Origin: a virus
Reading direction: 5' to 3' (one strand)
Virus record (IMG/VR): IMGVR_UViG_3300037247_000924
DNA: 64,000 bases
A program made the position numbers and the translations under genes. The notes beneath the pieces were generated by a model that did not search any database, was not told the DNA's origin, and saw only the letters and a program-made list of their open reading frames with translations. Positions 3,947 to 28,701 of this stretch are shown here, in pieces (positions within the stretch are counted from its first letter, which is position 1; each line of letters begins with the position of its first letter).

Positions 3947-4699
3947 TTATCTTCCTACACTTATTACTATCTTATCCGCGTTACTTTCGACAGTAAGCTC
4001 TGTAGTGAGGTTATCACCGTTTTCTAAAAGTAAATCCGCTTCTAGTTCTGCCGCTGCTACAGGATCAATATATGTCCAGTTTTTAGCAGCAAACTGTACT
4101 CCTGTTAATTCTTTTATGTGATCATATATATTATCCGCACTATCAGAAGTAAAGCAGTTATCATCGTCTGTCCTAGCATCAACCCCACCAGTCATGTCAG
4201 TTACGCTGGTAATCGCCATATCTCCTGTAGTAATAGCTAATATTTCATTATCCCTGTTTGGCTTTGATCCACTTCCTGCTGTTGCATCAACAGTAACTAC
4301 TGCTAGTAAATTAGAAGCTGTATAGTTGGGGGTAGATATAAAACCCGTGTCTGCCGTGGCTCCTGTAGCGGTTACAATAGCAGCTGCTGTAGTGGACAGG
4401 TCTGTATCAAAGGATACCGCTGCTGCCGTGATAGGGACCCCGTTAACAGTGATCCAGATGGTTCCAGTGGTACCGGTAAGGGTGAAGTTACCAGAAGCCA
4501 ATGTTTCTGCAATAGGGGGCTCGTAACATTTCAATATATTAATGTAAGCTACTATTAACTCCATCTTATTTATCTCGGCTTTACAAGGCACTATACCGTT
4601 TGCATACTTCAACGAGAGTTCATCCGCTAAAGTAGCAGCACAACAGACCACCTTGCGATTTCTAATAACTACATCGTTCCTTGTTAGTAAAGCCATCAA
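3947..4699 (-). CDS. Putative virion structural protein
   Basis: 250 aa, T/A-rich core, CC motif near the N-terminus; structural operon. Confidence 0.45.
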   Translation of the reverse strand: MMALLTRNDVVIRNRKVVCCAATLADELSLKYANGIVPCKAEINKMELIVAYINILKCYEPPIAETLASGNFTLTGTTGTIWITVNGVPITAAAVSFDTDLSTTAAAIVTATGATADTGFISTPNYTASNLLAVVTVDATAGSGSKPNRDNEILAITTGDMAITSVTDMTGGVDARTDDDNCFTSDSADNIYDHIKELTGVQFAAKNWTYIDPVAAAELEADLLLENGDNLTTELTVESNADKIVISVGR

Positions 4700-5744: not shown

Positions 5745-6980
5745 TCATAAACAACTACTACAAAAATTTTCCGAACAAAGGATGTCCAAGGTTTCATTAA
5801 TATTGTTTGCCCGAGTATTCTGCCCGGACTGTGCTGCATGCTGTAATGCTTCTAGCATAGTAAACGCAAATAAAGCTCTTTCTACTGCCACATTGTCACA
5901 GGCACAATCTTTTTCCGGGATCTCGGCTATGATATTATGAATACAACAAACCTTTCCACAAAAGATCAGGAATTCCCTTATTACCTCAAAGGATCCATCG
6001 TTTCCACCCCCGTTTCCATAAACAACATATCGTATGGTATATATTCCACTAGGGAATTCCGTAGCAGTAGCGTAGCTTAAATCATCCGTATCTACTGAGA
6101 ATGTCGTTCCGTCCACATTTGGAAGCGTGGGGAATACTCCAATCACATTAGACTTTACTGAAACCGTACCGCTACCAGTGCTTGTAAGGTCAATAGCTGT
6201 ACCAGCTGTAGCGTTAACAGAAGAGGTGGCCAATGATATAGTGCTTCCGGAAACTACTATTACGTAATACAGCCTATCCTCAGAGAGTCCGCCCGGTAAT
6301 GTAGCTGGACTGTTCTCAGATACTAATATTACTTGGTCCCTAACGCTGAGTCCATGGGCAGGGATCGTGATTGTATCGTTTGTAGTACTTACTATAGATG
6401 TACCGTCCGCTTCGAACGTTAGAGGCGTATAGGTAACCCCAGGGACCTCGTATTCTATAAAAGCACCAGTTACATCGACTACTGCCACATCGCTCCATAC
6501 GCCTTGCTGAATGTTCTCAAAGGTGAATGTAGTGGTTGCTGCGCCATCAGCTATGTTCGTTACGTTACCGGTTTGTGTATTGGTGATCGTTACTATATCA
6601 GATACTCTAGCTGCCGTGAAAGGGCTTCCGGTAACCGCGTTCAAGGCTGTAGTTGTATTTGTAGCTATAGTAACTGCCGTAGCTCCGGTTGCCGCTGTTA
6701 TTTCTATTCCGGTACTACTGGCCACTGCAGGGTCTGTTCCTGCGCTGTTAATATTATACCATACGTAGTAGTCTGTCTGTGGAGTAGAGAATAGGAAGTA
6801 CTGATCATTCAGGTTCCCGCCTACATCTGCTACAGTAGTCAGTCGCATGATCTCAGGAACATTGGTAGTCCTGTAGCCCGTAGAATTCGTGCTGGAATTA
6901 AAAATTCCACTCTCATCAGACACACATAAATGTGTGCATGTGTTGTTCGAGACTAAATTAACATCGGGTGCAAATGGCAT
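5745..6980 (-). CDS. Virion protein with small beta-barrel (FCCH-like) insert and Cys-rich C-terminus
   Basis: TITIPAHGL...LYYVIVVSGSTISLA motif shared with 7058..7786; CGKVCC, CACD, CSENFCSSC. Confidence 0.45.
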   Translation of the reverse strand: MPFAPDVNLVSNNTCTHLCVSDESGIFNSSTNSTGYRTTNVPEIMRLTTVADVGGNLNDQYFLFSTPQTDYYVWYNINSAGTDPAVASSTGIEITAATGATAVTIATNTTTALNAVTGSPFTAARVSDIVTITNTQTGNVTNIADGAATTTFTFENIQQGVWSDVAVVDVTGAFIEYEVPGVTYTPLTFEADGTSIVSTTNDTITIPAHGLSVRDQVILVSENSPATLPGGLSEDRLYYVIVVSGSTISLATSSVNATAGTAIDLTSTGSGTVSVKSNVIGVFPTLPNVDGTTFSVDTDDLSYATATEFPSGIYTIRYVVYGNGGGNDGSFEVIREFLIFCGKVCCIHNIIAEIPEKDCACDNVAVERALFAFTMLEALQHAAQSGQNTRANNINETLDILCSENFCSSCL

Positions 6981-18469: not shown

Positions 18470-21400
18470 TTACTGGAACCAGTCTGGTTGTGGACGTTGT
18501 TCTTTCTTTCCAAACGGATCGGACTTAAAAAACGGATCGTCCAGTACTGTTCTTACGTTTTCTTGCTTGATCACTCTCTGTTTCCTTATCTGTGCTAAGT
18601 AATACATTAAAACGAGAAATGACATTACCCTGTCATAGTTCCCATCTTCAGTGTACGCGATCAATTCTTTCAAAAACGGAATTGACCTAATTTTCTGCAA
18701 ATTTAACAATAATTCATCATCTTCTCGTTTTTCTATCAACCAAGTTTTCACCATTTCTTCACCAAACTCCTTTAACCCAGTAGTCATGTGTATTCCTTTT
18801 TTTCTACTTACCTTAGAATCATCAATAACATCTTGGATGATCTCAACAGGTTGATCTAACAATAAATACGTGCAGTTCTGGGAGTCGAAATAGTCAAATA
18901 ATCCCTTCCTTTCATTTTCATAAAGAATCTGGCAATTATAATACAGGAGTAGTTTACGTACATTCTCGTAGTAAATTTTAGAAGTCTCTGGCCTGCCAGA
19001 ATACTCGGCAACAATCTTATGATTCACTCTATCATAGACGAAAGTAGATCCCAGTGATCCGGTACTGGACTTATCATGATCGTATGGATCCGCGCTGGCC
19101 GCGTACATTCCTCTTGGTGGCCTGCCAGACTCATCATGATACGGATGGTTGAAAATAACTATACACCCAGTAGCGTCCTGCCCAGCTCTCATTGGGAAAT
19201 CGATAATTGGTACCAGGTCCGTATTCTCCTTCCAGACAATATCGCCTAAATTATCCGTAACTAAGTCTCCAATAAAATCTGCATTCCTAATCCTCTCGTT
19301 CGATTCCAAATACCCCAGGTGTTGTTTTAGCTCAGCAACGGCAAAGATCATTCCCTCTGTTCGCAAGACAGCCTCGGAAGGACTGAATGGCTTTTCTGCC
19401 ACGTATCGAACCACTGCATTCCGATCCTTAGCATTATCAGCTATCAGCTTACGCTCCTTCATTTCACGCTCTATTGCAGCCTCGATATTAGAGTTCCCAT
19501 TCTCATCATAGTAGCCCTCCATATTTAGGTATTCAGGTCCGAAGTATCCACACTCCGTATCTCCTTTCCCGTCATCCCAGATGTTAGGAGTATGGTGGAT
19601 ATTATAGGCTTTGGGGTAATAGAACAGTTCTTCTAGTCCATCAAAGTTGCTTCCTTCAGTTCCGCCTGTATTATGGGTAATAATTCCATTGGCAATATAT
19701 GTGCTTGTCGTACCGGCTGTTAAATTATAAATATCCCTCATTCCAATCTCCTCAACACTAATTACTCTCTCTAATCTCAGCCCATGCACATTAGCAGATA
19801 TCCCCTCTTTCTTATCTCTATACATCTCCTTAAATGTATTTAGTCTTCTTTGTTTTTCTGCTGGAAATAATTTAATATTCTTCACGAATGCTAAAACGCT
19901 TCTTTTGTCAGCAATTTCAAATCTAAAATGGTCGTTTTTGTCTTTAGGATTTTTTTCACTCTTTTTTATCCTCTGAATAGCTCCATGAACACCTATTCTC
20001 TGAAGTAAAAATCTTATTTCATCTAATAAGGTAAAGGACATAGAGGTTATGCTTATCCTACCTCTTTTCTTTTCAACATATCCATCCGTGTCGAAAAGAC
20101 CACCCAGTAATTCACAAATACTTTTTTTTGAGTAAGAATGGATATTCCTAGGAAGAGTTTTTGATAGTTTAGTTTGACCATATATTCCTACCGCTCTTAA
20201 TTTAGGGCAGATTCCTCTAATTCGTGTCTCTCTGTAAATCTTGCCTGTTTTTGTTATGTACTGCTTCTCAATAACGGTGTCGTAATTGGAATCAATAGCA
20301 GTGTTTATCTCGCCTTCACAATTAGAAAGGATGGGGGTCTTATTAATCCCATAGCTACCATCTCCAATTAACCATCCCAAAAGCCTCGCATCAGGTAATT
20401 CCTTACGCCTGGATATGGGCACAACATCAATCACTGCTATTTGATCACTAGCCTTAATATTCTTAGCCTCAACAAACTCTGTTTTTTTTATGAATGGTCT
20501 ACGAATATTACCTTTTGGTTTTCTAGGCTGAGAACCATGCCAGAGTTTACTCCATAATATTGGATGATCTTCACTGCACTCCAGCACTCTTCCGGTATGG
20601 GTGGTTATTCGATAGCAAAGCTTTTTAGCTGGCGGGTTCCAGTGAGTTACTTCCTCTTTTGATATCCTGCCTTCTTCTTTATTATACCCCAATATTCCCT
20701 GCCGCGGCTTAAGGTCTTCTATTTTCACTAAGTCTCCTCTATTATTCCAGACCTTTGTTCCAGCACAAACACATCCGAATGCAACTTGTAATCCGAACGT
20801 AATTGGACCCTGCTCCATCGAACTTCTAGTAATTCCCCAGGCCGTTAATAGTTTCGGGAAAAGACCAGCCTCCTCGAACAGAATCAGTTTCCCACGTTTT
20901 CCTCTCGATCTATTTGGGTTATCTTTTAGGGAGACTCCTATAATTTCAGACTTATAGCCCTTCTCTATACTTTGGCCATCTTCTAGCTCTGTAAAACTAG
21001 CCTTTCTGCGCATCTCCTTGTTAGTAGAGCTTCTTTTTGTCCAGGCGGTATGTTCGTTTATAAAATCTATATTATCCCACGCCTTTGTCAATAATCCATC
21101 TGAGGTTAGGTGCTCTTTCTCAAATGCCATAGCATAAGACTTGGATCCTCGAATAAGAAAATAATTACGACACAGCATATTGGCTCCTTTGTACGAAAAT
21201 CCGCGCCCACGCGCCTTAAGAACCACTCCATGCTTCCCATTTTTTTCAGCATCTTCTAGGTAATTAAAATACTTATAATCCCCGTCCCATACTTTAGGGA
21301 ACAACATAGGCCTATCGCCCTGGACCCTTTCATCTTCCTTTATATCCTCTATTGCTTCTACAACAGGGATCTGGCAATAATTCAAATAAAAGTAGTAGTA

Positions 21401-21574
21401 TCCAGATATCTTATCAAATCCCAAATCATAGCCTTCTATAGATCTTCTTTTCTCCTCTTCCCAAAACTTCATATACCCACTGGAGGGTAAATCATTAAAG
21501 GGATGTTTAGTATAGACTCCATGCTCCTCGAAATGAGCAGCAGCCGGTCTAAATTCTTGTACCCTTTCTAGCAT
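18470..21574 (-). CDS. terL: Terminase large subunit containing an intein
   Basis: Walker A LKARGRGFSY, Walker B LILFEEAG, AFG|intein|TGG, nuclease domain SADPYDHD and NYDRVMS. Confidence 0.93.
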   Translation of the reverse strand: MLERVQEFRPAAAHFEEHGVYTKHPFNDLPSSGYMKFWEEEKRRSIEGYDLGFDKISGYYYFYLNYCQIPVVEAIEDIKEDERVQGDRPMLFPKVWDGDYKYFNYLEDAEKNGKHGVVLKARGRGFSYKGANMLCRNYFLIRGSKSYAMAFEKEHLTSDGLLTKAWDNIDFINEHTAWTKRSSTNKEMRRKASFTELEDGQSIEKGYKSEIIGVSLKDNPNRSRGKRGKLILFEEAGLFPKLLTAWGITRSSMEQGPITFGLQVAFGCVCAGTKVWNNRGDLVKIEDLKPRQGILGYNKEEGRISKEEVTHWNPPAKKLCYRITTHTGRVLECSEDHPILWSKLWHGSQPRKPKGNIRRPFIKKTEFVEAKNIKASDQIAVIDVVPISRRKELPDARLLGWLIGDGSYGINKTPILSNCEGEINTAIDSNYDTVIEKQYITKTGKIYRETRIRGICPKLRAVGIYGQTKLSKTLPRNIHSYSKKSICELLGGLFDTDGYVEKKRGRISITSMSFTLLDEIRFLLQRIGVHGAIQRIKKSEKNPKDKNDHFRFEIADKRSVLAFVKNIKLFPAEKQRRLNTFKEMYRDKKEGISANVHGLRLERVISVEEIGMRDIYNLTAGTTSTYIANGIITHNTGGTEGSNFDGLEELFYYPKAYNIHHTPNIWDDGKGDTECGYFGPEYLNMEGYYDENGNSNIEAAIEREMKERKLIADNAKDRNAVVRYVAEKPFSPSEAVLRTEGMIFAVAELKQHLGYLESNERIRNADFIGDLVTDNLGDIVWKENTDLVPIIDFPMRAGQDATGCIVIFNHPYHDESGRPPRGMYAASADPYDHDKSSTGSLGSTFVYDRVNHKIVAEYSGRPETSKIYYENVRKLLLYYNCQILYENERKGLFDYFDSQNCTYLLLDQPVEIIQDVIDDSKVSRKKGIHMTTGLKEFGEEMVKTWLIEKREDDELLLNLQKIRSIPFLKELIAYTEDGNYDRVMSFLVLMYYLAQIRKQRVIKQENVRTVLDDPFFKSDPFGKKEQRPQPDWFQ
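19670..20773 (-). mobile_element. Intein with LAGLIDADG homing endonuclease (368 aa)
   Basis: Starts CVCAGTKV, ends YIANGIITHN followed by T; blocks LLGWLIGDGS and LLGGLFDTDG. Confidence 0.92.
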
Positions 21575-21580
21575 AGTACT

Positions 21581-22108
21581 TTAGCTTTCAAATGCCCCGG
21601 CGCTTCCTCCGCCACGAATTCTGGTGTCACTCTGTAGTTCTTTTTTTACCTTCTCATGTAGGCTCTCAAGACTATCCATAATACCACTTGCGTCCTTTAG
21701 TCCTGATGTGACCTCTTTTAGCTTATATAAGGGCTTGCCGTTATCGGGATCATAGTTGACATTACTAAAGTAGTCAGTTGTAGCCTCAAGAGCCTCAATA
21801 GCGCTTTCCAGGAACCTCAACGCTGGGGTTGACTGCAGTATCCTGTACTTTTCTACTCCTGCCCTTAAAACAACACTAATCTGCCGTATGTCGAAATCTT
21901 TCCTTAACGTATCCTCTCGCTCTTCAATAAGATAGGATTGATATACGGAAGAATAGTCACACAGAAAATAGATGTATGATAAGTATTTAATAGCAAGTTC
22001 CTTTTTTGGAGAGGTATCATGTTTCCAAATGGCGGCAAATTCCGGTATTGAAAGTGCTGCAGGATTTATTGTGAGTTCCTTGTTACTGTCTAAGCTTAAT
22101 AGATTCAT
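21581..22108 (-). CDS. Conserved crAss-like protein upstream of TerL (possible TerS)
   Basis: F..IW..D.S..KE.A...L.YIYF..DY.S.Y motif and position. Confidence 0.5.
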   Translation of the reverse strand: MNLLSLDSNKELTINPAALSIPEFAAIWKHDTSPKKELAIKYLSYIYFLCDYSSVYQSYLIEEREDTLRKDFDIRQISVVLRAGVEKYRILQSTPALRFLESAIEALEATTDYFSNVNYDPDNGKPLYKLKEVTSGLKDASGIMDSLESLHEKVKKELQSDTRIRGGGSAGAFES

Positions 22109-22296
22109 GTACTGCTGATTACTTGGGGAGCATCGGGGACCCCGGTTATGGTCGAGCTTTCCTCTGAATAGGTAATGTCAAAACTGGGTTCATCTTCGCC
22201 TATATAAGATATTAGATAGCGTATCCTTGACTCAAGAATCCTTACTGTAGTGTAAAATTCCTCTTTTGTTACGTATTCGGTTTTTTTCTTGGTCAT
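22105..22296 (-). CDS. Hypothetical protein
   Basis: 63 aa; stop overlaps the next start codon. Confidence 0.45.
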   Translation of the reverse strand: MTKKKTEYVTKEEFYTTVRILESRIRYLISYIGEDEPSFDITYSEESSTITGVPDAPQVISST

Positions 22297-22297
22297 A

Positions 22298-22501
22298 CTA
22301 CTTCCATCTCTTTAATTCACAAATCACTTTAGGGGCCCTAGTTTTCATTGGTATCGGGCAATTACACTCCTTACAGATATTATACCAGTTAGAAGGGCAT
22401 GGAGCACACATGACAGCCCTTGATTTCGCCATCTGCTCTACCTTGGGATTCTTCCAAATTACGTTCTTCCAGCCGTCGTAGATGTCTTGTAACTTACCCA
22501 T
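22298..22501 (-). CDS. Small Cys-rich (Zn-binding) protein
   Basis: R..MC..CP.....CKECNC...KTR....C...RW. Confidence 0.6.
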   Translation of the reverse strand: MGKLQDIYDGWKNVIWKNPKVEQMAKSRAVMCAPCPSNWYNICKECNCPIPMKTRAPKVICELKRWK

Positions 22502-22578
22502 TTAACGACAATATAGAAATTGTGTTACTGTAAAATTAGGAATAGTGCGGGGGTAAACCTAAGAAAATACGGATTAAG

Positions 22579-22653
22579 TGGTTGCCCAACGTGGATTCGA
22601 ACCACGATTCACTCCTTCAAAGGGAGGTGTCCTGCCAGTTAGACGAAAGGGCA
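22579..22653 (-). tRNA. tRNA-Gln(UUG)
   Basis: Cloverleaf; loop CT-TTG-AA; encoded CCA. Confidence 0.92.
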
Positions 22654-22659
22654 ATATTG

Positions 22660-22733
22660 CTGCGAGTCTGAGACTCGAACTCAGGATCTTCTGCTTAACA
22701 GGCAGCTGCTGTAACCAACTCAGCTAACTCGCA
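22660..22733 (-). tRNA. tRNA-Asn(GUU)
   Basis: Cloverleaf; loop CT-GTT-AA. Confidence 0.92.
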
Positions 22734-22738
22734 TTTTG

Positions 22739-22808
22739 CACAGGAAGCAGGAGTTGAACCCACAAGTCACGAGTTTGGAATCCGCTTAGTACACCAATAC
22801 GTTCCTGC
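22739..22808 (-). tRNA. tRNA-Trp(CCA), short D arm
   Basis: Acceptor GCAGGAA/TTCCTGT; loop TT-CCA-AA; T-loop TTCAACT; weak anticodon stem. Confidence 0.75.
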
Positions 22809-22814
22809 GTATAG

Positions 22815-22888
22815 CGGTACGGGCTGGACTCGAACCAGCGGCCAGCAGATCTTCAATCTACCACTCTACGCAACTGAGTTACCGTACC
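22815..22888 (-). tRNA. tRNA-Phe(GAA)
   Basis: Cloverleaf; loop TT-GAA-GA. Confidence 0.9.
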
Positions 22889-22894
22889 TTATTG

Positions 22895-22968
22895 AGACCA
22901 GAACAGGGTTCGAACCTGCGTAAAGGGTTTTGCAGACCCCCACCTATAACCATCTCAGACATCTGGCC
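22895..22968 (-). tRNA. tRNA-Cys(GCA)
   Basis: Cloverleaf; loop CT-GCA-AA; U73. Confidence 0.92.
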
Positions 22969-22973
22969 TTGTG

Positions 22974-23047
22974 CGGTACCGATGGGATTTGAACCCACGA
23001 TCTCCTCCGTGACAGGGAGGCAACATACACCAACATGATGCGGCACC
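22974..23047 (-). tRNA. tRNA-Asp(GUC)
   Basis: Cloverleaf; CCTCC CT-GTC-AC GGAGG; G73. Confidence 0.9.
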
Positions 23048-23051
23048 ATAT

Positions 23052-23081
23052 AAAAAAAGCCCTTCGCTATTAACAAAGGGC
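23052..23081 (-). terminator. Attenuator terminator C (upstream of Asp-Cys-Phe-Trp-Asn-Gln)
   Basis: GCCCTTTG-TTAATAG-CGAAGGGC-TTTTTTT, ending 4 nt before tRNA-Asp. Confidence 0.88.
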
Positions 23082-23107
23082 CTCGACTATTCTTTAAAGT
23101 TAGCGCA

Positions 23108-23173
23108 TTAGCCCCCTGTATCTTGATTAAAATCAAAATCACAGTTAAACCAATTTTGCTGTACTCTTCTCAT
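23108..23173 (-). CDS. Leader peptide C, MRRVQQNWFNCDFDFNQDTGG
   Basis: ATG AGA AGA GTA CAG CAA AAT TGG TTT AAC TGT GAT TTT GAT TTT AAT CAA GAT ACA GGG GGC TAA; codons 5-18 use only the six amino acids of the downstream tRNAs. Confidence 0.9.
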   Translation of the reverse strand: MRRVQQNWFNCDFDFNQDTGG

Positions 23174-23183
23174 AATTTCTTAG

Positions 23184-23256
23184 TATCCCAGACCAGATTC
23201 GAACTGGCGACTTTACCTTGAAAGGGTAACGGCTTGACCAACTTGCCCACAGGGAC
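23184..23256 (-). tRNA. tRNA-Glu(UUC)
   Basis: Cloverleaf; TTACC CT-TTC-AA GGTAA. Confidence 0.9.
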
Positions 23257-23293
23257 AAGTCTCCTCAGCTTCAATATCTACCGTTGCTTTCAT
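23213..23293 (-). CDS. Putative leaderless peptide MKATVDIEAEET... reading into tRNA-Glu
   Basis: ATG 4 nt after TATATTTG; GAA GCT GAG GAG just before the tRNA 5' end; stop inside the anticodon arm. Confidence 0.45.
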   Translation of the reverse strand: MKATVDIEAEETCPCGQVGQAVTLSR

Positions 23294-23297
23294 CTTG

Positions 23298-23305
23298 CAA
23301 ATATA
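23298..23305 (-). promoter_or_regulatory. -7 promoter element TATATTTG (tRNA-Glu and operon C)
   Basis: Exact TAnnTTTG match. Confidence 0.75.
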
Positions 23306-23325
23306 CAATTCTTTTTTTAATAACG

Positions 23326-23399
23326 TGATTCCGGTGAGAGTCGAACTCACAACCCTCTGCTTAGAAGGCAGATGCTCTATCCAGTTGAGCTACGGAACC
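23326..23399 (-). tRNA. tRNA-Arg(UCU)
   Basis: TCTGC CT-TCT-AA GCAGA. Confidence 0.92.
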
Positions 23400-23402
23400 A
23401 TG

Positions 23403-23475
23403 TTCCCCTGGTGGGCCTCGAACCCACTACTTTCCCGTTAAAAGCGGGAAGCCCGTCCACATGAGCTTCAGAGGA
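23403..23475 (-). tRNA. tRNA-Lys(UUU)
   Basis: TCCCG CT-TTT-AA CGGGA. Confidence 0.9.
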
Positions 23476-23537
23476 ATATATAGGAATACCAGGACGTTAT
23501 CTACGCCTGATCACCTGTTTATATTTCCTCTTACTTC

Positions 23538-24215
23538 TCATGCTAATGTTTTTGTTCTTATGTAATCAATTCCTCCATAAACGTTTTGTACTAATTCGGT
23601 TGAGCACACATATAGAGTTCCTGTTCCATACGGGAGCTTTCCAATTCCTTTTCTCTGAGTATCCCTTCTTATTTTATTCTTTGAGCATAACAGTGTCCAT
23701 TTTTTGTTTTTAAGCTTCGGAAACTCTTTGATCCATCGTCTCCTTATTTGGTATTCCGACAACCCGTTTTCTCCATAATAACATACCCGTATTTTGCATG
23801 ATTTATTTTTTACATTCTCATCAACCCACTCCCCCACCACCTTAATCATCGGCAAGTCTGAGTTGGCGAAAGAAAATATATTCCTACCCTTGGAGCCCTC
23901 ACCCCAATAAAGAGCGCATATCAACCTAAAAGGCTCATCTGTTTTTGCCCTCTCAAAACCATTCTTTCTGTAGCCTAATCTTCTCTCTTGTGCTTTTGTT
24001 TTATTGATTCTAGACTGCACTAGGAGCTTATCTATACCTGCATTTAAGCGGTTATTTTCTAAAGTTCGCTTATGATCTTCTGTTAACTTTACATCCCGAA
24101 CCCATAAACTAACCGAGCTTTTTGACACTCTAAGTTTTTTAGCGATCTTAAACAGGCTTAATCCCAATCCACGAAGCCGCCTAGCCTCTTTTTGCTCATT
24201 TTCTTTTTTCTTCAT
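23538..24215 (-). CDS. HTH plus LAGLIDADG-like putative homing endonuclease inside the tRNA array
   Basis: N-terminal HTH (GLSLFKIAKKLRVSKSSVSLWVR); ALYWGEGSK, FANSD and YGTGTL motifs; between tRNA-Val and tRNA-Lys. Confidence 0.6.
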   Translation of the reverse strand: MKKKENEQKEARRLRGLGLSLFKIAKKLRVSKSSVSLWVRDVKLTEDHKRTLENNRLNAGIDKLLVQSRINKTKAQERRLGYRKNGFERAKTDEPFRLICALYWGEGSKGRNIFSFANSDLPMIKVVGEWVDENVKNKSCKIRVCYYGENGLSEYQIRRRWIKEFPKLKNKKWTLLCSKNKIRRDTQRKGIGKLPYGTGTLYVCSTELVQNVYGGIDYIRTKTLA

Positions 24216-24244
24216 CCGAACCTCTGTCTTATTAATATATAAGA

Positions 24245-24252
24245 CAAAGATA
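24245..24252 (-). promoter_or_regulatory. -7 promoter element TATCTTTG for the endonuclease-like gene
   Basis: TAnnTTTG immediately 3' of tRNA-Val. Confidence 0.6.
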
Positions 24253-24263
24253 CTAATTATTAT

Positions 24264-24340
24264 TGGTACTTGCTAAGAGATTCGAACTCCTGACCCTCTC
24301 GGTGTAAACGAGACGCTCTTAACCGCTGAGCTAAGCAAGC
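24264..24340 (-). tRNA. tRNA-Val(UAC)
   Basis: TCTCG TT-TAC-AC CGAGA; encoded CCA. Confidence 0.93.
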
Positions 24341-24346
24341 ATGTAG

Positions 24347-24422
24347 TGGATCTGAACGGACTTGAACCGATAACCTTCTGAGTGCAAAACAGACGCTCTA
24401 GCCAAATTGGAGCTACAAACCC
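24347..24422 (-). tRNA. tRNA-Ala(UGC)
   Basis: Loop TT-TGC-AC; G3:U70 identity pair. Confidence 0.92.
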
Positions 24423-24426
24423 ATTT

Positions 24427-24514
24427 TAATCATGCCTCCCTGTGGAGTATCTGCACAGGACTATGCCCGCTCACCACCCCGATGGATTTCACATTCTTCA
24501 GGGAGACATGATTA
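24427..24514 (-). ncRNA. Structured RNA of unknown function between tRNA-Ile2 and tRNA-Ala
   Basis: 16-bp closing stem TAATCATGTCTCCCTG / CAGGGAGGCATGATTA enclosing two small hairpins. Confidence 0.5.
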
Positions 24515-24520
24515 TCATAG

Positions 24521-24594
24521 TTGACCCTAAAGGAATTGAACCTTTAACCTTCCGGTTATGAGCCGGGCGCTCTGACCAATTGAGCTAAGGGTCA
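24521..24594 (-). tRNA. tRNA-Ile2(CAU), lysidine-type (elongator Met not excluded)
   Basis: CCCGG CT-CAT-AA CCGGA; acceptor TGACCCT resembles Ile2. Confidence 0.75.
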
Positions 24595-24597
24595 CTG

Positions 24598-24671
24598 AGC
24601 GAATAGTCGGGATCGAACCGACTCTATTTCTGCTTGGAAGGCAGACGCACCACCGTTTATGCGTTACTCGC
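24598..24671 (-). tRNA. tRNA-Gly(UCC)
   Basis: TCTGC CT-TCC-AA GCAGA; U73. Confidence 0.92.
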
Positions 24672-24677
24672 TTATTG

Positions 24678-24750
24678 TTGGCAAAATTGGATTTGAACCA
24701 ATGACCCCCGCCTTATCAGGACGGTGCTCTCACCGCTGAGCTATTCGCCA
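24678..24750 (-). tRNA. tRNA-Ile(GAU)
   Basis: CCGTC CT-GAT-AA GGCGG. Confidence 0.92.
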
Positions 24751-24755
24751 ATATG

Positions 24756-24829
24756 TAGCGGGACACGGATTCGAACCGTGGACCTGTAGGTTATGAGCCT
24801 ACCGAGCTGACCAACTGCTCCATCCCGCT
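24756..24829 (-). tRNA. tRNA-Met(CAU), initiator-like
   Basis: AGCGGGATGGAGCAG 5' end resembles fMet; loop CT-CAT-AA; 1:72 is paired (A-U). Confidence 0.85.
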
Positions 24830-24837
24830 ATATATTG

Positions 24838-24911
24838 AGCCGCATACAGGATTCGAACCTGTGACCGGTTGATTACAAATCAACAGCTCTGACCATCTGA
24901 GCTAACGCGGC
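24838..24911 (-). tRNA. tRNA-Thr(UGU)
   Basis: GTTGA TT-TGT-AA TCAAC. Confidence 0.92.
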
Positions 24912-24914
24912 ATT

Positions 24915-24946
24915 AAAAAACCCCAAGCAATTTCTCACTTGGGGTT
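24915..24946 (-). terminator. Attenuator terminator B (upstream of the Thr...Val/Lys/Arg block)
   Basis: CCCCAAG-TGAGAAATTG-CTTGGGG-TTTTTT, ending 3 nt before tRNA-Thr. Confidence 0.88.
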
Positions 24947-24967
24947 CCAGTATCGTAAATTGCTTCG

Positions 24968-25054
24968 TTAGGTTATACATACACCGGTGCCCCCTTGTGA
25001 CTTAATCACCGTGGCAGCCATTCTCGCTATCGTATTTCTCCTTATTGAAGTCAT
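24968..25054 (-). CDS. Leader peptide B, MTSIRRNTIARMAATVIKSQGGTGVCIT
   Basis: 28 codons, 23 of which encode T/M/I/G/A/V/K/R; Arg codons are all AGR; Ile is ATA x3 and ATT x1. Confidence 0.85.
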   Translation of the reverse strand: MTSIRRNTIARMAATVIKSQGGTGVCIT

Positions 25055-25073
25055 TTTGTTTTTATTAACAGTA

Positions 25074-25081
25074 CAAACGTA
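25074..25081 (-). promoter_or_regulatory. -7 promoter element TACGTTTG (operon B)
   Basis: TAnnTTTG followed by an A-rich 5' UTR and the leader ATG. Confidence 0.75.
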
Positions 25082-25114
25082 CAACCCTTGGATTTAATAT
25101 CCTAATTTATTTTG

Positions 25115-25187
25115 GGTGACACCGGGACTCGAACCCTGTTCTCCAGATTCACAGTCTGGCACTTTACGCATATAAGCTAGTGACACC
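25115..25187 (-). tRNA. tRNA-His(GUG)
   Basis: CCAGA CT-GTG-AA TCTGG; C73; acceptor/T-stem register ambiguous by 1 nt. Confidence 0.88.
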
Positions 25188-25193
25188 ATATAG

Positions 25194-25265
25194 TACCCCC
25201 GGCACGATTCGAACGCGCATTCCCTGGTCCGAAGCCAGGAGCTCTATCCGTTGAACTACGGAGGC
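25194..25265 (-). tRNA. tRNA-Arg(UCG)
   Basis: CCTGG CT-TCG-GA CCAGG. Confidence 0.9.
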
Positions 25266-25270
25266 ATTTG

Positions 25271-25355
25271 TACCGAGAGCGGGCCTCGAACCCGCAAGAT
25301 CGCAATGACCGTCAGGGCTTAAACCTGATGCGTTTACCTATTTCACCACCTCGGC
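25271..25355 (-). tRNA. tRNA-Leu(UAA)
   Basis: TCAGG TT-TAA-GC CCTGA; long variable arm. Confidence 0.92.
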
Positions 25356-25359
25356 ATAG

Positions 25360-25434
25360 TACCGGTGAAGGGAATCGAACCCCCAGAACTCCTGATCCTA
25401 AGTCAGGCGACTTTACCATTTTGCCCACACCGGC
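25360..25434 (-). tRNA. tRNA-Leu(UAG), short variable region
   Basis: CCTGA CT-TAG-GA TCAGG; variable region about 6 nt; 75 nt total. Confidence 0.85.
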
Positions 25435-25439
25435 ATTCG

Positions 25440-25509
25440 TGGGGTACCAGGATTCGAACCTTGGCGGTTAGGGGTTACAACCCTTCCGGCACAACCTACG
25501 CTGCACCCC
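25440..25509 (-). tRNA. Atypical tRNA-Tyr(GUA), 70 nt
   Basis: Acceptor GGGGTGC/GTACCCC; loop TT-GTA-AC; T-loop TTCGAAT; reduced D arm; no long variable arm. Confidence 0.6.
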
Positions 25510-25515
25510 ATCTAG

Positions 25516-25597
25516 CGGAAAACAGAGGCCACGATCCCCAATCCTTTCAGATCCACCTCTTTAGCAAAGAGAGCCTACCCAGGTAGGTTTATCTTCC
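25516..25597 (-). tRNA. tRNA-Ser(GCU)
   Basis: TCTCT TT-GCT-AA AGAGG; long variable arm; G73; non-canonical T-loop ATCGTGG. Confidence 0.85.
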
Positions 25598-25602
25598 GTA
25601 TG

Positions 25603-25691
25603 CGGAAAGCGGAGGACCCGACCCCCAGACAACTTAATGCCTTCTAGTTTTCAAGACTAGCCGCAGCTCCATTGCCACTGCTTCACCTTCC
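25603..25691 (-). tRNA. tRNA-Ser(UGA)
   Basis: CTAGT CT-TGA-AA ACTAG; long variable arm; G73; non-canonical T-loop. Confidence 0.85.
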
Positions 25692-25696
25692 GTTTG

Positions 25697-25769
25697 TCTG
25701 AGTGGAGAGACTTGAACTCCCGTCCTGAGCATCCCAAATGCCCCGCGCTACCAACTGTGCCACACCCAG
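25697..25769 (-). tRNA. tRNA-Pro(UGG)
   Basis: GGGCA TT-TGG-GA TGCTC; C1:G72. Confidence 0.92.
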
Positions 25770-25781
25770 ATATTATTCCAC

Positions 25782-25813
25782 AAAAAAAGCCCCGGAGGTT
25801 ATCCGAGGCTTTT
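25782..25813 (-). terminator. Attenuator terminator A (upstream of the Pro...His block)
   Basis: GCCTCGGA-TAACC-TCCGGGGC-TTTTTTT, ending 12 nt before tRNA-Pro. Confidence 0.9.
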
Positions 25814-25832
25814 CCTATATATGTCGTGAATC

Positions 25833-25901
25833 TTACATAGGCGTATCCCCCGGACTTGCGTTCGGCAGCGAATAGCGACTATGTAAGAGTTGTTGAATCA
25901 C
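25833..25901 (-). CDS. Leader peptide A, (M)IQQLLHSRYSLPNASPGDTPM
   Basis: GTG ATT CAA CAA CTC TTA CAT AGT CGC TAT TCG CTG CCG AAC GCA AGT CCG GGG GAT ACG CCT ATG TAA; GTG 4 nt after the -7 box (leaderless). Confidence 0.85.
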   Translation of the reverse strand: MIQQLLHSRYSLPNASPGDTPM

Positions 25902-25905
25902 GATG

Positions 25906-25913
25906 CAAATATA
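25906..25913 (-). promoter_or_regulatory. -7 promoter element TATATTTG (operon A)
   Basis: Exact TAnnTTTG match. Confidence 0.78.
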
Positions 25914-25927
25914 CTACTCTTTTTCGA

Positions 25928-26251
25928 TTATTTTAAAAACGCCTCTCTTTTTATTTTATCATAATCTACTCCCTTACAAATTTGTTTAGTCAAAAACCTA
26001 CAATAATCCGGATTAACTTTTTGTCTGTATCCAAGTAAATGCATAGAATTAGCTTTTCCCTTTAGTTTATGAGATTTAACCTTATAAAAAATCCCCCAAT
26101 AATCTTTTATTCTCTTTTTAAGCTTTCTGGATATTCTAGGATTCTCTCTAAGACAGTGTTTTGTTTTAGGTTCCGTAAAATGTTTTTCTAACTCTTCATA
26201 TAGAATAGCCTTCATTCTTCTTTGCCTAGCTCCTGTCTGGATTAATTGCAC
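25928..26251 (-). CDS. Hypothetical basic protein
   Basis: 107-aa ORF; start uncertain. Confidence 0.45.
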   Translation of the reverse strand: MQLIQTGARQRRMKAILYEELEKHFTEPKTKHCLRENPRISRKLKKRIKDYWGIFYKVKSHKLKGKANSMHLLGYRQKVNPDYCRFLTKQICKGVDYDKIKREAFLK

Positions 26252-26379
26252 AACTCGTACAGTCTTTACCTGAATGATGATCTACTGGACAGGGCCTATC
26301 TGTCAAGAGATCGCATTGCCTCTTACCGTCTTCCCAATAATAATGAAACATCCCTGATAATTCGGTTTCTGGCATCTTC

Positions 26380-26745
26380 TTAAAGTGTTTCAAAATAGAA
26401 TTTTACTTTAACTCCTGTTTCTTTGATAAGTCCGTAATCTTTTGCCATTCGATATGCACTTGAATCCCTCTGGAGCCGTTCACATTGTTTCTGAAGCTCT
26501 TCCCTGAATTTCTCAATGGTAAAAGTGTCCTTCCACCTATTGCATCTAGGGCAGCTAGGATTTGAGTTTTCTAAAGTATCAGCACCCTTTTTTAACTTAT
26601 ACTTTTCACATTCCTCTAGTGTCATGTTGTGCCAATGAGCTTCGATATGGTCTACATGCCAACCCTTCTGTAATTCACAACCACAGTAGGCGCACTTACC
26701 TCCGTACTTATCAAATATAAACTTTCTATCGCTTGCTTTACTCAT
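26380..26745 (-). CDS. HNH endonuclease
   Basis: CAYCG...WHVDHI...NPSCPRCNRWK. Confidence 0.88.
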   Translation of the reverse strand: MSKASDRKFIFDKYGGKCAYCGCELQKGWHVDHIEAHWHNMTLEECEKYKLKKGADTLENSNPSCPRCNRWKDTFTIEKFREELQKQCERLQRDSSAYRMAKDYGLIKETGVKVKFYFETL

Positions 26746-26790
26746 CCTCTAAGGTTGCTTTTTTGAGCGTATTATCCATATCTAACTCTT

Positions 26791-26994
26791 CTAATTTCTC
26801 TTTTTGATCGAATGATCATTGGCTAAAAGTCGTTTATATGCTTCTATACCCGCCTCTGTAAGTTCGTATTTCCCTTTAACCTCCCTGAACCATTCCGCAT
26901 TTATATTTGAACCAGAACCAATAAGAATACACTTAGTAGGCTTTCCTTTATCCCACCAACTAGCGTTCTTGAGTTTTTTAATATCGTAGTTCAT
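26791..26994 (-). CDS. Hypothetical protein
   Basis: 67-aa ORF. Confidence 0.4.
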   Translation of the reverse strand: MNYDIKKLKNASWWDKGKPTKCILIGSGSNINAEWFREVKGKYELTEAGIEAYKRLLANDHSIKKRN

Positions 26995-27069
26995 TATATT
27001 CTAATTACTAATTTGATAATTATTAGTAATGGTTAGTAATACGCCACAACCGTCATTAGTTTATACTCA

Positions 27070-27549
27070 CTATTTACCATGCTCCTCATCATGGCACTTC
27101 TCACAAAGAGTTATCATATCCTTTCCTTTCGCTTCCCATATATAACTATTCTTTCGATACTTAAGATGGTGAACATGCAGCATACTGTCTTTATCACCAC
27201 ACCTCCTGCAAGTAAATTTGTCTCTCTCTAGTATCTGTAGCCTTCTCCGCTGCCAATTCGGGTGCCTGTACTGCTCTTTCCATGTTAAGGGCTCCGCTAC
27301 AGGTATAAATCTAACCTTTTTGTTTTTAAACTTACTTCTTTTCTTTCTACACGGCTTCCCGGTTAAATGTTTATTCCTTAGGTCCAAAAACTCCTGCATA
27401 GCGTTCTCGGTATACTCCTTTCCGATCAATTGCTTTTTCCATCCTTTAGGAGTAAACTTAAAAACGCCTAACGCCCTGAATTGAGCATTAGACCATCCGC
27501 CATGACGACTCTTTGCGGCATCCATAATATCCTGGGTCATCACTACCAT
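27070..27549 (-). CDS. HNH endonuclease with extra N-terminal domain
   Basis: WQRRRLQILERDKFTCRRCG...LHVHH...TLCEKCHDEEH; N-terminal GGWSNAQ...PKGWKK. Confidence 0.85.
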   Translation of the reverse strand: MVVMTQDIMDAAKSRHGGWSNAQFRALGVFKFTPKGWKKQLIGKEYTENAMQEFLDLRNKHLTGKPCRKKRSKFKNKKVRFIPVAEPLTWKEQYRHPNWQRRRLQILERDKFTCRRCGDKDSMLHVHHLKYRKNSYIWEAKGKDMITLCEKCHDEEHGK

Positions 27550-27796
27550 ACCAACTCTTTCTCTGAAATCCCTTATTCAGCAGTTTAAAACCTGTTTAGT
27601 TCTACTATAATCTAATCATTTACTCCTAATCCTCTGTACGATTAGTGGAATAGGTCGTCGAATTTTCAGCTTAACCGTCCTCAGTTGTCGAGGTATTCCC
27701 AGGAAGGTTCCCACCTTTCCCTTCTTCAATCTTAGATAACCCTTTTGTTTCTACCTTCTTGCGGTACTTCGGTTGGGTTGTAAGAACCGATATTAG

Positions 27797-27875
27797 TGGA
27801 GAGTGAAGGACTCGAACCTCCGACCTGCTGTCTTAACCGTGCGCACCGCTGCTCTACCAACTGAGCTAACTCCCC
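27797..27875 (-). tRNA. tRNA-Ala-like RNA with 13-nt anticodon loop
   Basis: Acceptor GGGGAGT/ACTCTCC-A (G3:U70), canonical D and T arms, anticodon arm GCGGT-GCGCACGGTTAAG-ACAGC. Confidence 0.7.
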
Positions 27876-28075
27876 ATATGATAACCTGTTAATCCCTTAC
27901 AGAAGGATTAAAGTACAAAGGGTCGGCATAACTTTCAGCCTCCTTCCACCCTCGCGTGTACCTCTCCTATCAACTGCTGTAAAACTTATCTCAATACTGC
28001 TTTTTAAGAGCATCTATTAATATATTGAATCAAAGAGCAGGTTATCAATATTTAAAGAACAATGAGAAAGTATCG

Positions 28076-28126
28076 GACAAAAAGAATCCCGATGCAAACT
28101 AGAGCCAGCACATCGGGAAATTCTTT
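28076..28126. terminator. Long hairpin, bidirectional terminator-like
   Basis: AAAGAATCCCGATG...CATCGGGAAATTCTTT flanked by A and T tracts. Confidence 0.65.
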
Positions 28127-28246
28127 CACGGTATCAGGGGTATCCCTTCTACGTTATAATGTCATTCGAGAATTAGCTGGCTTAATAGTTATTTTCTCTG
28201 ACTACAAAGTAAAGCATTATATATTTAACATACAAGGGTAAATTAC

Positions 28247-28272
28247 AAAACCCCCTGAATAATCAGAGGGCT
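28247..28272 (-). terminator. Intrinsic terminator
   Basis: GCCCTCTGA-TTAT-TCAGGGGGT-TTTG. Confidence 0.7.
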
Positions 28273-28338
28273 TGCACAAATTTAACATTAGAGCTACTTC
28301 TTGCAGCACCCATCTACGGGTAATCAAATATACTGAAT

Positions 28339-28701
28339 TTAAAGCGGATCCAGCGGGTCACCAAAGATCTTTATACACTTTTCTGCCTCAGTCTTCTCTT
28401 CTGCTTGATCTGCTAGTTGATCTTTAAACATCTCCCTAGTGATTTGTTTCCGATCAGCCCAGGCTACTCTCCTACGCTGAGACAAGCAGAAGCTACCAAA
28501 TCCAGGAATCCACACAAGCCTCTTTTCTATAGCCATTTGACTAGCAGTAAAGTTGAGTGTCTTCCTAATTATGGACCGAACCACAGTCACGGAGAGCCCC
28601 TGTTCTGCGGCGATCTTACTCACAATCTTTTCAAGTCCTGGTTCAAAAGGTTCAGGTCGGGACCTTGTTACAGGGAAGTGATTGACTACAAGCTTAGCCA
28701 T
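28339..28701 (-). CDS. HU/IHF-like DNA-binding protein
   Basis: IVSKIAAEQGLS...VWIPGFGSFCL, HU family pattern. Confidence 0.75.
   Translation of the reverse strand: MAKLVVNHFPVTRSRPEPFEPGLEKIVSKIAAEQGLSVTVVRSIIRKTLNFTASQMAIEKRLVWIPGFGSFCLSQRRRVAWADRKQITREMFKDQLADQAEEKTEAEKCIKIFGDPLDPL

Follow-up and report, generated by a model that had tools for sequence, protein, structure and literature searches.

Judged from its sequence, the 64-kb window (the whole stretch of DNA that was analysed) is phage DNA, belonging to an uncultured crAss-like marine phage. The large terminase, encoded with an intein at 18470–21574, is approximately 50% identical to those of crAss-like phages, e.g. cr115_1 and Dulem virus 42, and the locus was contained in one sequencing run, of marine-sediment DNA. 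The intein within the terminase gene (minus strand) carries a LAGLIDADG domain; a terminase with a LAGLIDADG intein is also present in 41%-identical relatives (L015–L019) from digester and other metagenomes, L018 and L020 being without the intein. The window contains a tRNA array, in which the following features are considered here:

22579–25769, minus strand: tRNA array (ARAGORN)
25114–25769, minus strand: tRNA block A, the predicted controlled cargo (ARAGORN; for part of it the Rfam tRNA model)
24968–25054, minus strand: leader B (codon run)
23108–23173, minus strand: leader C (codon run)

With ARAGORN, 21 tRNA genes were counted in the array at the default threshold and 24 at a relaxed threshold (-ps90), the three extras being Trp-CCA (22738–22808), Tyr-GUA (25439–25510) and Ser-GCU (25515–25593). 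The 24 tRNAs amount to one U34 tRNA per four-codon box. Each sense codon was assigned to the phage tRNA expected to read it, every four-codon box being given a single U34 tRNA; on this basis all 61 sense codons are divided 24 + 26 + 11 among the three blocks, which are bounded by terminators. Block A holds the tRNAs Pro-UGG, Ser-UGA, Ser-GCU, Tyr-GUA, Leu-UAG, Leu-UAA, Arg-UCG and His-GUG, two of which (Ser-GCU and Tyr-GUA) are non-canonical, with 3-bp D stems; these two were detected only by ARAGORN at the relaxed threshold and gave no match to the Rfam tRNA model. The tRNA-Trp(CCA) gene (minus strand) is non-canonical too, having a short D stem, and was missed by the Rfam tRNA model. A similar Ser gene is present in Cellulophaga phage phi4:1, where it is annotated as protein Phi4113_076.

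Several other elements of the region are worth recording. Block B is split by an ORF for a 225-aa endonuclease-like protein (23538–24215, minus strand), which has its own TAnnTTTG box. The tRNA-Glu gene (23183–23256) has no terminator ahead of it, and Glu codons are missing from leaders A, B and C; a second TATATTTG box at 23293–23305 (minus strand) is followed exactly 4 nt on by an ATG, whose ORF, MKATVDIEAEET..., reads into tRNA-Glu. Outside the array, at 27796–27875 (minus strand), lies a tRNA-like gene with an abnormal anticodon loop, reported as tRNA-??? by ARAGORN and scoring 49.9 bits with the Rfam tRNA model.

Ahead of block A, and downstream of a gene that ends at 25928 without a terminator of its own, lies the element termed leader A, whose parts are:

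25906–25913, minus strand: Bacteroidota-type −7 promoter box TATATTTG (from the sequence; position as in the F. psychrophilum TSS map)
25833–25901, minus strand: leader ORF with GTG start at the predicted +1, 22 codons and TAA stop (from the sequence)
25863–25889, minus strand: putative regulatory run, codons 5–13, L L H S R Y S L P (six-frame scan and Markov expectation)
25879–25888, minus strand: region 1, predicted 5' arm of hairpin P1 (anti-antiterminator), covering codons 5–8 including TTA CAT (MFE fold)
25848–25854, minus strand: region 2, TCCGGGG, predicted antiterminator strand against the terminator 5' arm (constrained folds, duplex energies)
25831–25840, minus strand: predicted 3' arm of P1, containing the ATG of the final sense codon and the TAA stop (MFE fold, pairing in homologs)
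25782–25809, minus strand: predicted intrinsic terminator, with stem 25809–25802/25796–25789, loop TAACC and U-tract 25788–25782

On the minus strand the TATATTTG box (25913–25906) is followed by CATC and then by GTG (25901–25899), in agreement, base for base, with the original prediction, which had placed the GTG 4 nt after the box. In the TSS map of Flavobacterium psychrophilum the box is found at −12 to −5 (PMC9723704), which would put +1 on the G of the GTG at 25901. The mRNA of leader A is probably leaderless with a GUG start, an assumption that we hold less firmly than the attenuator reading presented below; short 5' UTRs and leaderless mRNAs are rare in Bacteroidota (3.7–5.5%; PMC7366714, PMC9723704). 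Since TAnnTTTG occurs on the minus strand at about chance frequency (29 sites versus approximately 27 expected, as estimated from base composition), the box is informative through its position only. A start codon exactly 4 nt after the box was found for 3 of the 44 boxes in the window, and two of these three are in the tRNA array. A scan for sigma-70 and terminator consensus sequences was uninformative for a promoter of the Bacteroidota type, and the leader A terminator was not listed by it. The ORF reads V/M-IQQLLHSRYSLPNASPGDTPM-stop and ends with ATG TAA at 25838–25833.

Codons 5–13 of this ORF are indeed CTC TTA CAT AGT CGC TAT TCG CTG CCG, and the claim that they represent all 8 tRNAs of block A was confirmed, with Leu-UAG occurring twice and the others once; both Leu and both Ser isoacceptors are included. 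Of the uninterrupted runs of block A codons in the 64-kb window, scanned in all six frames, the one starting at 25889 alone includes all eight tRNA classes. Under a second-order Markov model 0.023 such runs are expected per 64-kb strand, and the chance of finding one in the 120 nt ahead of block A is about 4e-5. A weaker statistic, the number of runs of at least 9 codons for the six amino acids of block A, gives 41 occurrences in the window. Reading of CTC and CGC by Leu-UAG and Arg-UCG would require U34 superwobble, an assumption in which our confidence is again lower than in the attenuator. Codons 2–4 (Ile, Gln, Gln) belong to other blocks, yet fall within the stall window predicted below; the CAA codons at positions 3 and 4 look like a remnant of relatives whose first block holds tRNA-Gln.

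The other two leaders are matched to their blocks as well. Leader C contains 14 consecutive codons for Asp, Cys, Phe, Trp, Asn and Gln ahead of exactly those six tRNAs, the next longest run of this codon set in the window being 8. In leader B, 22 of the 27 codons are from its own block, with Ile encoded by ATA/ATT and Arg only by AGR, versus CGN in leader A, as had been noted in the original prediction.

The repeats claimed for leader A were recovered without mismatch: TCCGGGG at 25854–25848 is identical to the terminator 3' arm at 25796–25790, and TCTTACATAG (25888–25879) forms a perfect 10-bp inverted repeat with CTATGTAAGA (25840–25831). The terminator reads GCCTCGGA, loop TAACC and TCCGGGGC plus T7, ending at 25782, with an 8-bp GC-rich stem, and tRNA-Pro starts at 25769, 12 nt past the U-tract. 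The predicted fold of the leader A RNA, a long hairpin followed by the terminator, has an energy of −49.8 kcal/mol (z = −5.4), and none of 200 shuffles was as stable. The motif GGGGG has 24 sites on the minus strand, yet is found in the 3' part of leaders A, B and C alike. An Rfam cmscan of 22000–28500 (E<=1) returned only tRNA-type matches and no amino-acid leader, T-box or sRNA family.

Exact patterns combining the leader and the tRNAs found no match in IMG/VR or the JGI metagenomes. Other searches for close relatives of the locus were unsuccessful as well: 1) a flanking 96-aa ORF had no relatives except one 45%-identical IMG/VR match without tRNAs, 2) a 175-aa neighbour had a relative of 72% identity (L011) in which the order Phe-Trp-Asn-Gln recurs, on a contig that ends within tRNA-Phe, 3) more distant crAss-like relatives had no array at the corresponding position, and 4) blastn against INPHARED gave tRNA-level matches only. 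Five homologs of leader A were nevertheless found, one in Cellulophaga phage phi4:1, three on IMG/VR contigs and one on a contig from a Flavobacteriaceae MAG; each lies ahead of a block led by tRNA-Pro:

L021:3148: first leader of phi4:1 (KT962245), ahead of Pro, Glu, Gln, His, Leu, Leu, Arg
L022:1692, minus strand: leader ahead of Pro, Gln, His, Met
L053:7525: leader followed by an inserted HNH gene (L053:7700–8222), then Pro, Gln, Met, Asn, Leu
L054:5174: leader ahead of Pro, Glu, Gln, His, Leu, Leu, Arg
L059:2044, minus strand: leader with cargo as in L054, on a contig of 78.9 kb from a MAG with the label Lacinutrix

The ORFs of these homologs have 22, 22, 23, 23 and 27 codons. The first leader of phi4:1, a phage of another genus (Lightbulbvirus), consists of TATGTTTG, 4 nt and an ATG opening 22 codons, and aligns gap-free with leader A over the first 34 nt (global alignment score z = 3.7). 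Phi4:1 has three units of leader, terminator and block, and each leader has a run that holds all tRNA classes of its own block (7 classes in 11 codons, 9 in 16 and 6 in 10). Its second leader (L021:4072–4191) corresponds to an annotated 39-aa hypothetical protein, Phi4113_075, within the tRNA array; the annotated TTG start of this protein overlaps the promoter box, so that the GTG at 4108 is the more likely start. The terminase of L054 is 30–44% identical to that of the window, which indicates that L054 is also crAss-like. In L053 the HNH gene sits between the attenuator terminator and tRNA-Pro; mobile endonuclease-like genes were thus found inside two regulated units, block B of the window and the L053 unit.

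The further members L022, L053, L054 and L059 were found with patterns built from positions common to leader A and phi4:1. As TTTG-N4-RTG and TTACAT were built into these patterns, and RTGTAR as well for all members but L022, conservation of these elements is partly by construction; the box occurs with the same 4-nt spacing in the homologs, its TTTG-N4-RTG part being among the elements required. A loose pattern matched 36 loci, and any tRNA gene was present only in the four with family-type leaders. A mis-spaced control pattern (44 N instead of 42 N) matched six loci, 0/6 with tRNAs. One match from a genome scan, L058, was rejected as random.

Comparison of the six leaders showed that their codons track the cargo. 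Codons 4–14 encode QLLHSRYSLPN in the window and QRLHLQELEQP, LRLHLELEQPL, QRLHQELEQPT, QQLHQQPILID and NNLHIQQNNLP in the homologs, and the numbers of codons out of 11 that match the leader's own block are, in the same order, 9, 11, 11, 10, 6 and 9. For the nine amino acids having a tRNA in only some of the blocks, presence in the block was tabulated against presence in the core; the resulting Fisher table for the 6 leaders (25/2/4/23) gave p = 3.7e-9, and the four distinct cargos alone gave p = 6e-5, shared ancestry not being corrected for in either value. The match to the own block was the maximum among 120 permutations, the sole tie being the swap of two blocks with identical cargo. Codons for Ser and Tyr are confined to the leader of the window, those for Glu to leaders followed by tRNA-Glu, and a set of four Asn codons to the leader with tRNA-Asn behind it. 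The exchange goes both ways: behind a leader of the NSNWSFS..DTG type, phi4:1 and L054 have a single block with Ser, Tyr, Asn, Trp and Phe; in the window, Ser and Tyr are in block A with their codons in leader A, and Gln is in block C with its codons in leader C. As read from these sequences, a tRNA that changes blocks is accompanied by its codons in the leader, as for Ser/Tyr, Gln, Asp, Glu and Asn.

Leaders whose block has no Leu or His tRNA nevertheless retain TTA CAT. The idea that TTA CAT or CAA must match the cargo was rejected, TTA CAT being held by pairing with the last codon and the stop. Leader C of the window is similar to the leaders of the NSNWSFS..DTG type in phi4:1 (at L021:5854) and in L054 (on the minus strand, with its box at 6723).

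The predicted helices are kept across the homologs. With RNAalifold, the helix between codons 5–7 (…UUACAU) and the last codon plus stop ((A/G)UGUA(A/G)) was found in all sequences, with one column of P1 fully compensatory and two showing wobble changes. In L054 the reading frame over the P1 helix is shifted, and the helix is nevertheless kept. All homologs have the terminator, whose helix contains many compensatory pairs. Region 2 (nt 48–60, Ser/Gly codons) mimics the 3' arm of each phage's own terminator: it is UCCGGGG in leader A and GGGAGG in phi4:1, and in L053 it reproduces 11 nt of that arm exactly. As the MAFFT alignment sets the terminators one column out of register, duplex energies were calculated per sequence: duplexes of region 2 with the terminator 5' arm in the 6 leaders averaged −12.4 kcal/mol for cognate and −7.3 kcal/mol for non-cognate pairs, and the cognate pairing was equalled by only 2 of 720 permutations.

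For the switch itself, the ribosome footprint (−15 to +12 nt around the A-site codon) was masked and the nascent RNA was folded up to the terminator loop. In leader A the probability of pairing between the terminator 5' arm and region 2 was 0.78 with the A site at codons 2–12, fell to 0.55 and 0.12 at codons 13 and 14, respectively, and was 0 thereafter. The antiterminator windows predicted in this way for the nascent RNA comprise A-site codons 2–13 in leader A, 1–14 in phi4:1 and 1–13 in L022, and the codon runs end at codon 13 in leader A and at codon 14 in phi4:1, i.e. at the ends of the predicted stall windows. The antiterminator structure has an energy of −21.4 kcal/mol, and 99.7% of the dinucleotide shuffles made of region 2 gave less stable structures. 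The role proposed for region 2, that of an antiterminator against CCTCGGA, is therefore also what the constrained folds predict. In full-length leader A RNA at equilibrium, the terminator has a probability of 0.99 at every ribosome position, with duplex energies of −18 kcal/mol for the terminator versus −12 kcal/mol for the antiterminator. Since the terminator wins at equilibrium, the switch would have to be kinetic, as in trp. The proposed 1:2 anti-antiterminator helix found mixed support: P1 is present in the MFE fold and kept in the homologs, but without a ribosome the MFE structure of the nascent RNA shows the antiterminator, not P1, in leader A and L022.

We consider it likely that leader A is a ribosome-mediated transcription attenuator of the trp leader-peptide type, which would gate the block of tRNA genes from Pro to His. 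This reading, based on sequence and modelled folds, is supported by i) the unique codon run, ii) the matched leaders B and C, iii) the five homologs, iv) the covariation of the helices, and v) the agreement of the run with the stall window. In such a mechanism, host RNA polymerase would start at or near the G of the GTG at 25901, and a ribosome would translate the 22-codon ORF while the polymerase nears the terminator at 25809–25782. A ribosome slowed at any of codons 5–13 would keep region 1 out of P1 and leave region 2 free to pair with the emerging terminator 5' arm (CCUCGGA), so that no terminator would form and the tRNA genes would be transcribed. With fast decoding, a ribosome at codon 14 or later, or at the stop, would cover region 2 and the terminator would form; with no ribosome loaded, P1 would sequester region 2 and the terminator would likewise form. 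The net effect would be a negative feedback in which slow decoding of its own codons leads to production of the tRNA set. The analysis shows the sequence elements, their statistical singularity, and conserved, covarying codons and helices in six homologous leaders; we infer where transcription starts, that the ORF is translated, that the helices compete kinetically and that tRNA shortage is the signal. That the natural signal is tRNA depletion rather than amino-acid starvation is put forward with less assurance than the attenuator as such.

An unlikely variant is that the ORF senses decoding with another output, i.e. Rho access, RNase cleavage or tRNA 5' processing, or that the 22-residue peptide is itself the product. 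It would accommodate an equilibrium terminator much stronger than the antiterminator, a first tRNA so close to the U-tract (12 nt) that the leader structure could affect RNase P processing, and an ORF length of 22–23 codons in five of the six homologous leaders. However, that region 2 copies the phage's own terminator 3' arm, with cognate pairs the best, is expected only if blocking of the terminator is its purpose. A functional peptide is also difficult to reconcile with a core that follows the tRNA content instead of being conserved, and with the shifted frame of L054, in which the RNA helix is kept.

Matching at the isoacceptor level (CGN in leader A versus AGR in leader B, and codons for the two Leu and the two Ser tRNAs) and the movement of leader codons together with tRNAs between blocks make it very unlikely that the attenuator reports general translation capacity or amino-acid starvation, not the supply of the downstream tRNA species. 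Such a general sensor would be consistent with the total charged pool being sensed, as host tRNAs read the same codons, and with the presence in the stall window of codons 2–4, which are those of other blocks; it would also fit the retention of TTA CAT where Leu or His tRNA is absent from the block, but this is explained by pairing with the last codon and stop. That the region is an ordinary promoter, a structured sRNA or an end-of-gene terminator, with a chance codon match and no sensing of translation, is scarcely credible: the chance-level frequency of TAnnTTTG, the stable, sRNA-like fold into hairpin plus terminator and the lack of a terminator for the gene ending at 25928 would suit it, but the run with all eight classes is unique in the window (about 4e-5 at this spot), two further matched leaders lie in the same array, codons track cargo in six homologous leaders, and the mis-spaced control pattern matched only tRNA-free loci.

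Phage tRNA arrays are usually seen as constitutive codon-usage helpers or as replacements for destroyed host tRNAs. Building on the attenuator reading of leader A, we propose, tentatively and with considerable doubt, that marine Bacteroidota phages carry a modular, inheritable sensor of decoding capacity, and that the array is an inducible counter-defence and not a constitutive codon-usage aid. Every tRNA sub-array would then have ahead of it a leader that lists the cargo codon by codon and is rewritten when tRNA genes move between blocks, so that the phage would turn on precisely the tRNAs whose codons are decoded slowly; the triggers might be loss of host tRNAs during infection or cleavage by host anticodon nucleases.

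Should leader A be an attenuator, i) classical attenuation would be extended to RNA genes, ii) the leaders would offer a direct read-out of the tRNAs perceived as limiting by the phage, and iii) the cutting of arrays into blocks by terminators would be explained. The rewriting of leader codons with tRNA moves would be a rare and clean case of co-evolution between sensor and cargo. As one member of the leader family is from a cultured phage, Cellulophaga phage phi4:1, which grows on C. baltica, the idea is bench-testable. For annotation, small "hypothetical proteins" within tRNA arrays, such as Phi4113_075, are probably leaders.

Among known systems, the T-box riboswitch (RF00230) binds uncharged tRNA directly without a ribosome and needs a specifier loop and the T-box sequence; T-boxes are found mainly in Firmicutes, where they control synthetase, transporter and biosynthesis genes. 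Leader A would resemble them in sensing tRNA supply, in switching between terminator and antiterminator, and in exerting feedback on the decoding machinery, but differs in having an ORF and no Rfam T-box match. Upstream ORFs that sense decoding include mgtL (Pro codons) and the erm and cat leaders, which act by stalling. A further example is the Ala-dependent uORF of whiB7 (PMC10274678). In these cases, as proposed for leader A, slowing of the ribosome at particular codons alters downstream RNA structure and expression; they differ in responding to one amino acid or drug and in controlling protein genes, none of them controlling tRNA genes or spelling out a tRNA set.

The closest parallels are the leader-peptide attenuators of the amino-acid operons of enterobacteria, i.e. 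trpL, hisL, leuL, pheL, thrL and ilvL. These share with leader A a short ORF with a run of regulatory codons and have, as is predicted for leader A, alternative 1:2, 2:3 and 3:4 helices that end in an intrinsic terminator, the position of the ribosome deciding between them; the ilv and thr leaders are multivalent, naming several amino acids, like leader A. A full-text literature search found no description of leader-peptide control of tRNA genes. Unlike the classical leaders, which repeat one or two codons, leader A has codons for as many as eight tRNA species, most of which it lists a single time. It is also phage-borne and, as its start codon coincides with the predicted +1 of a Bacteroidota sigma-A promoter, putatively leaderless. 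Classical attenuators control genes and enzymes of amino-acid biosynthesis, whereas the cargo of leader A consists of eight tRNA genes, and it is this cargo that is new in comparison with the known attenuators.
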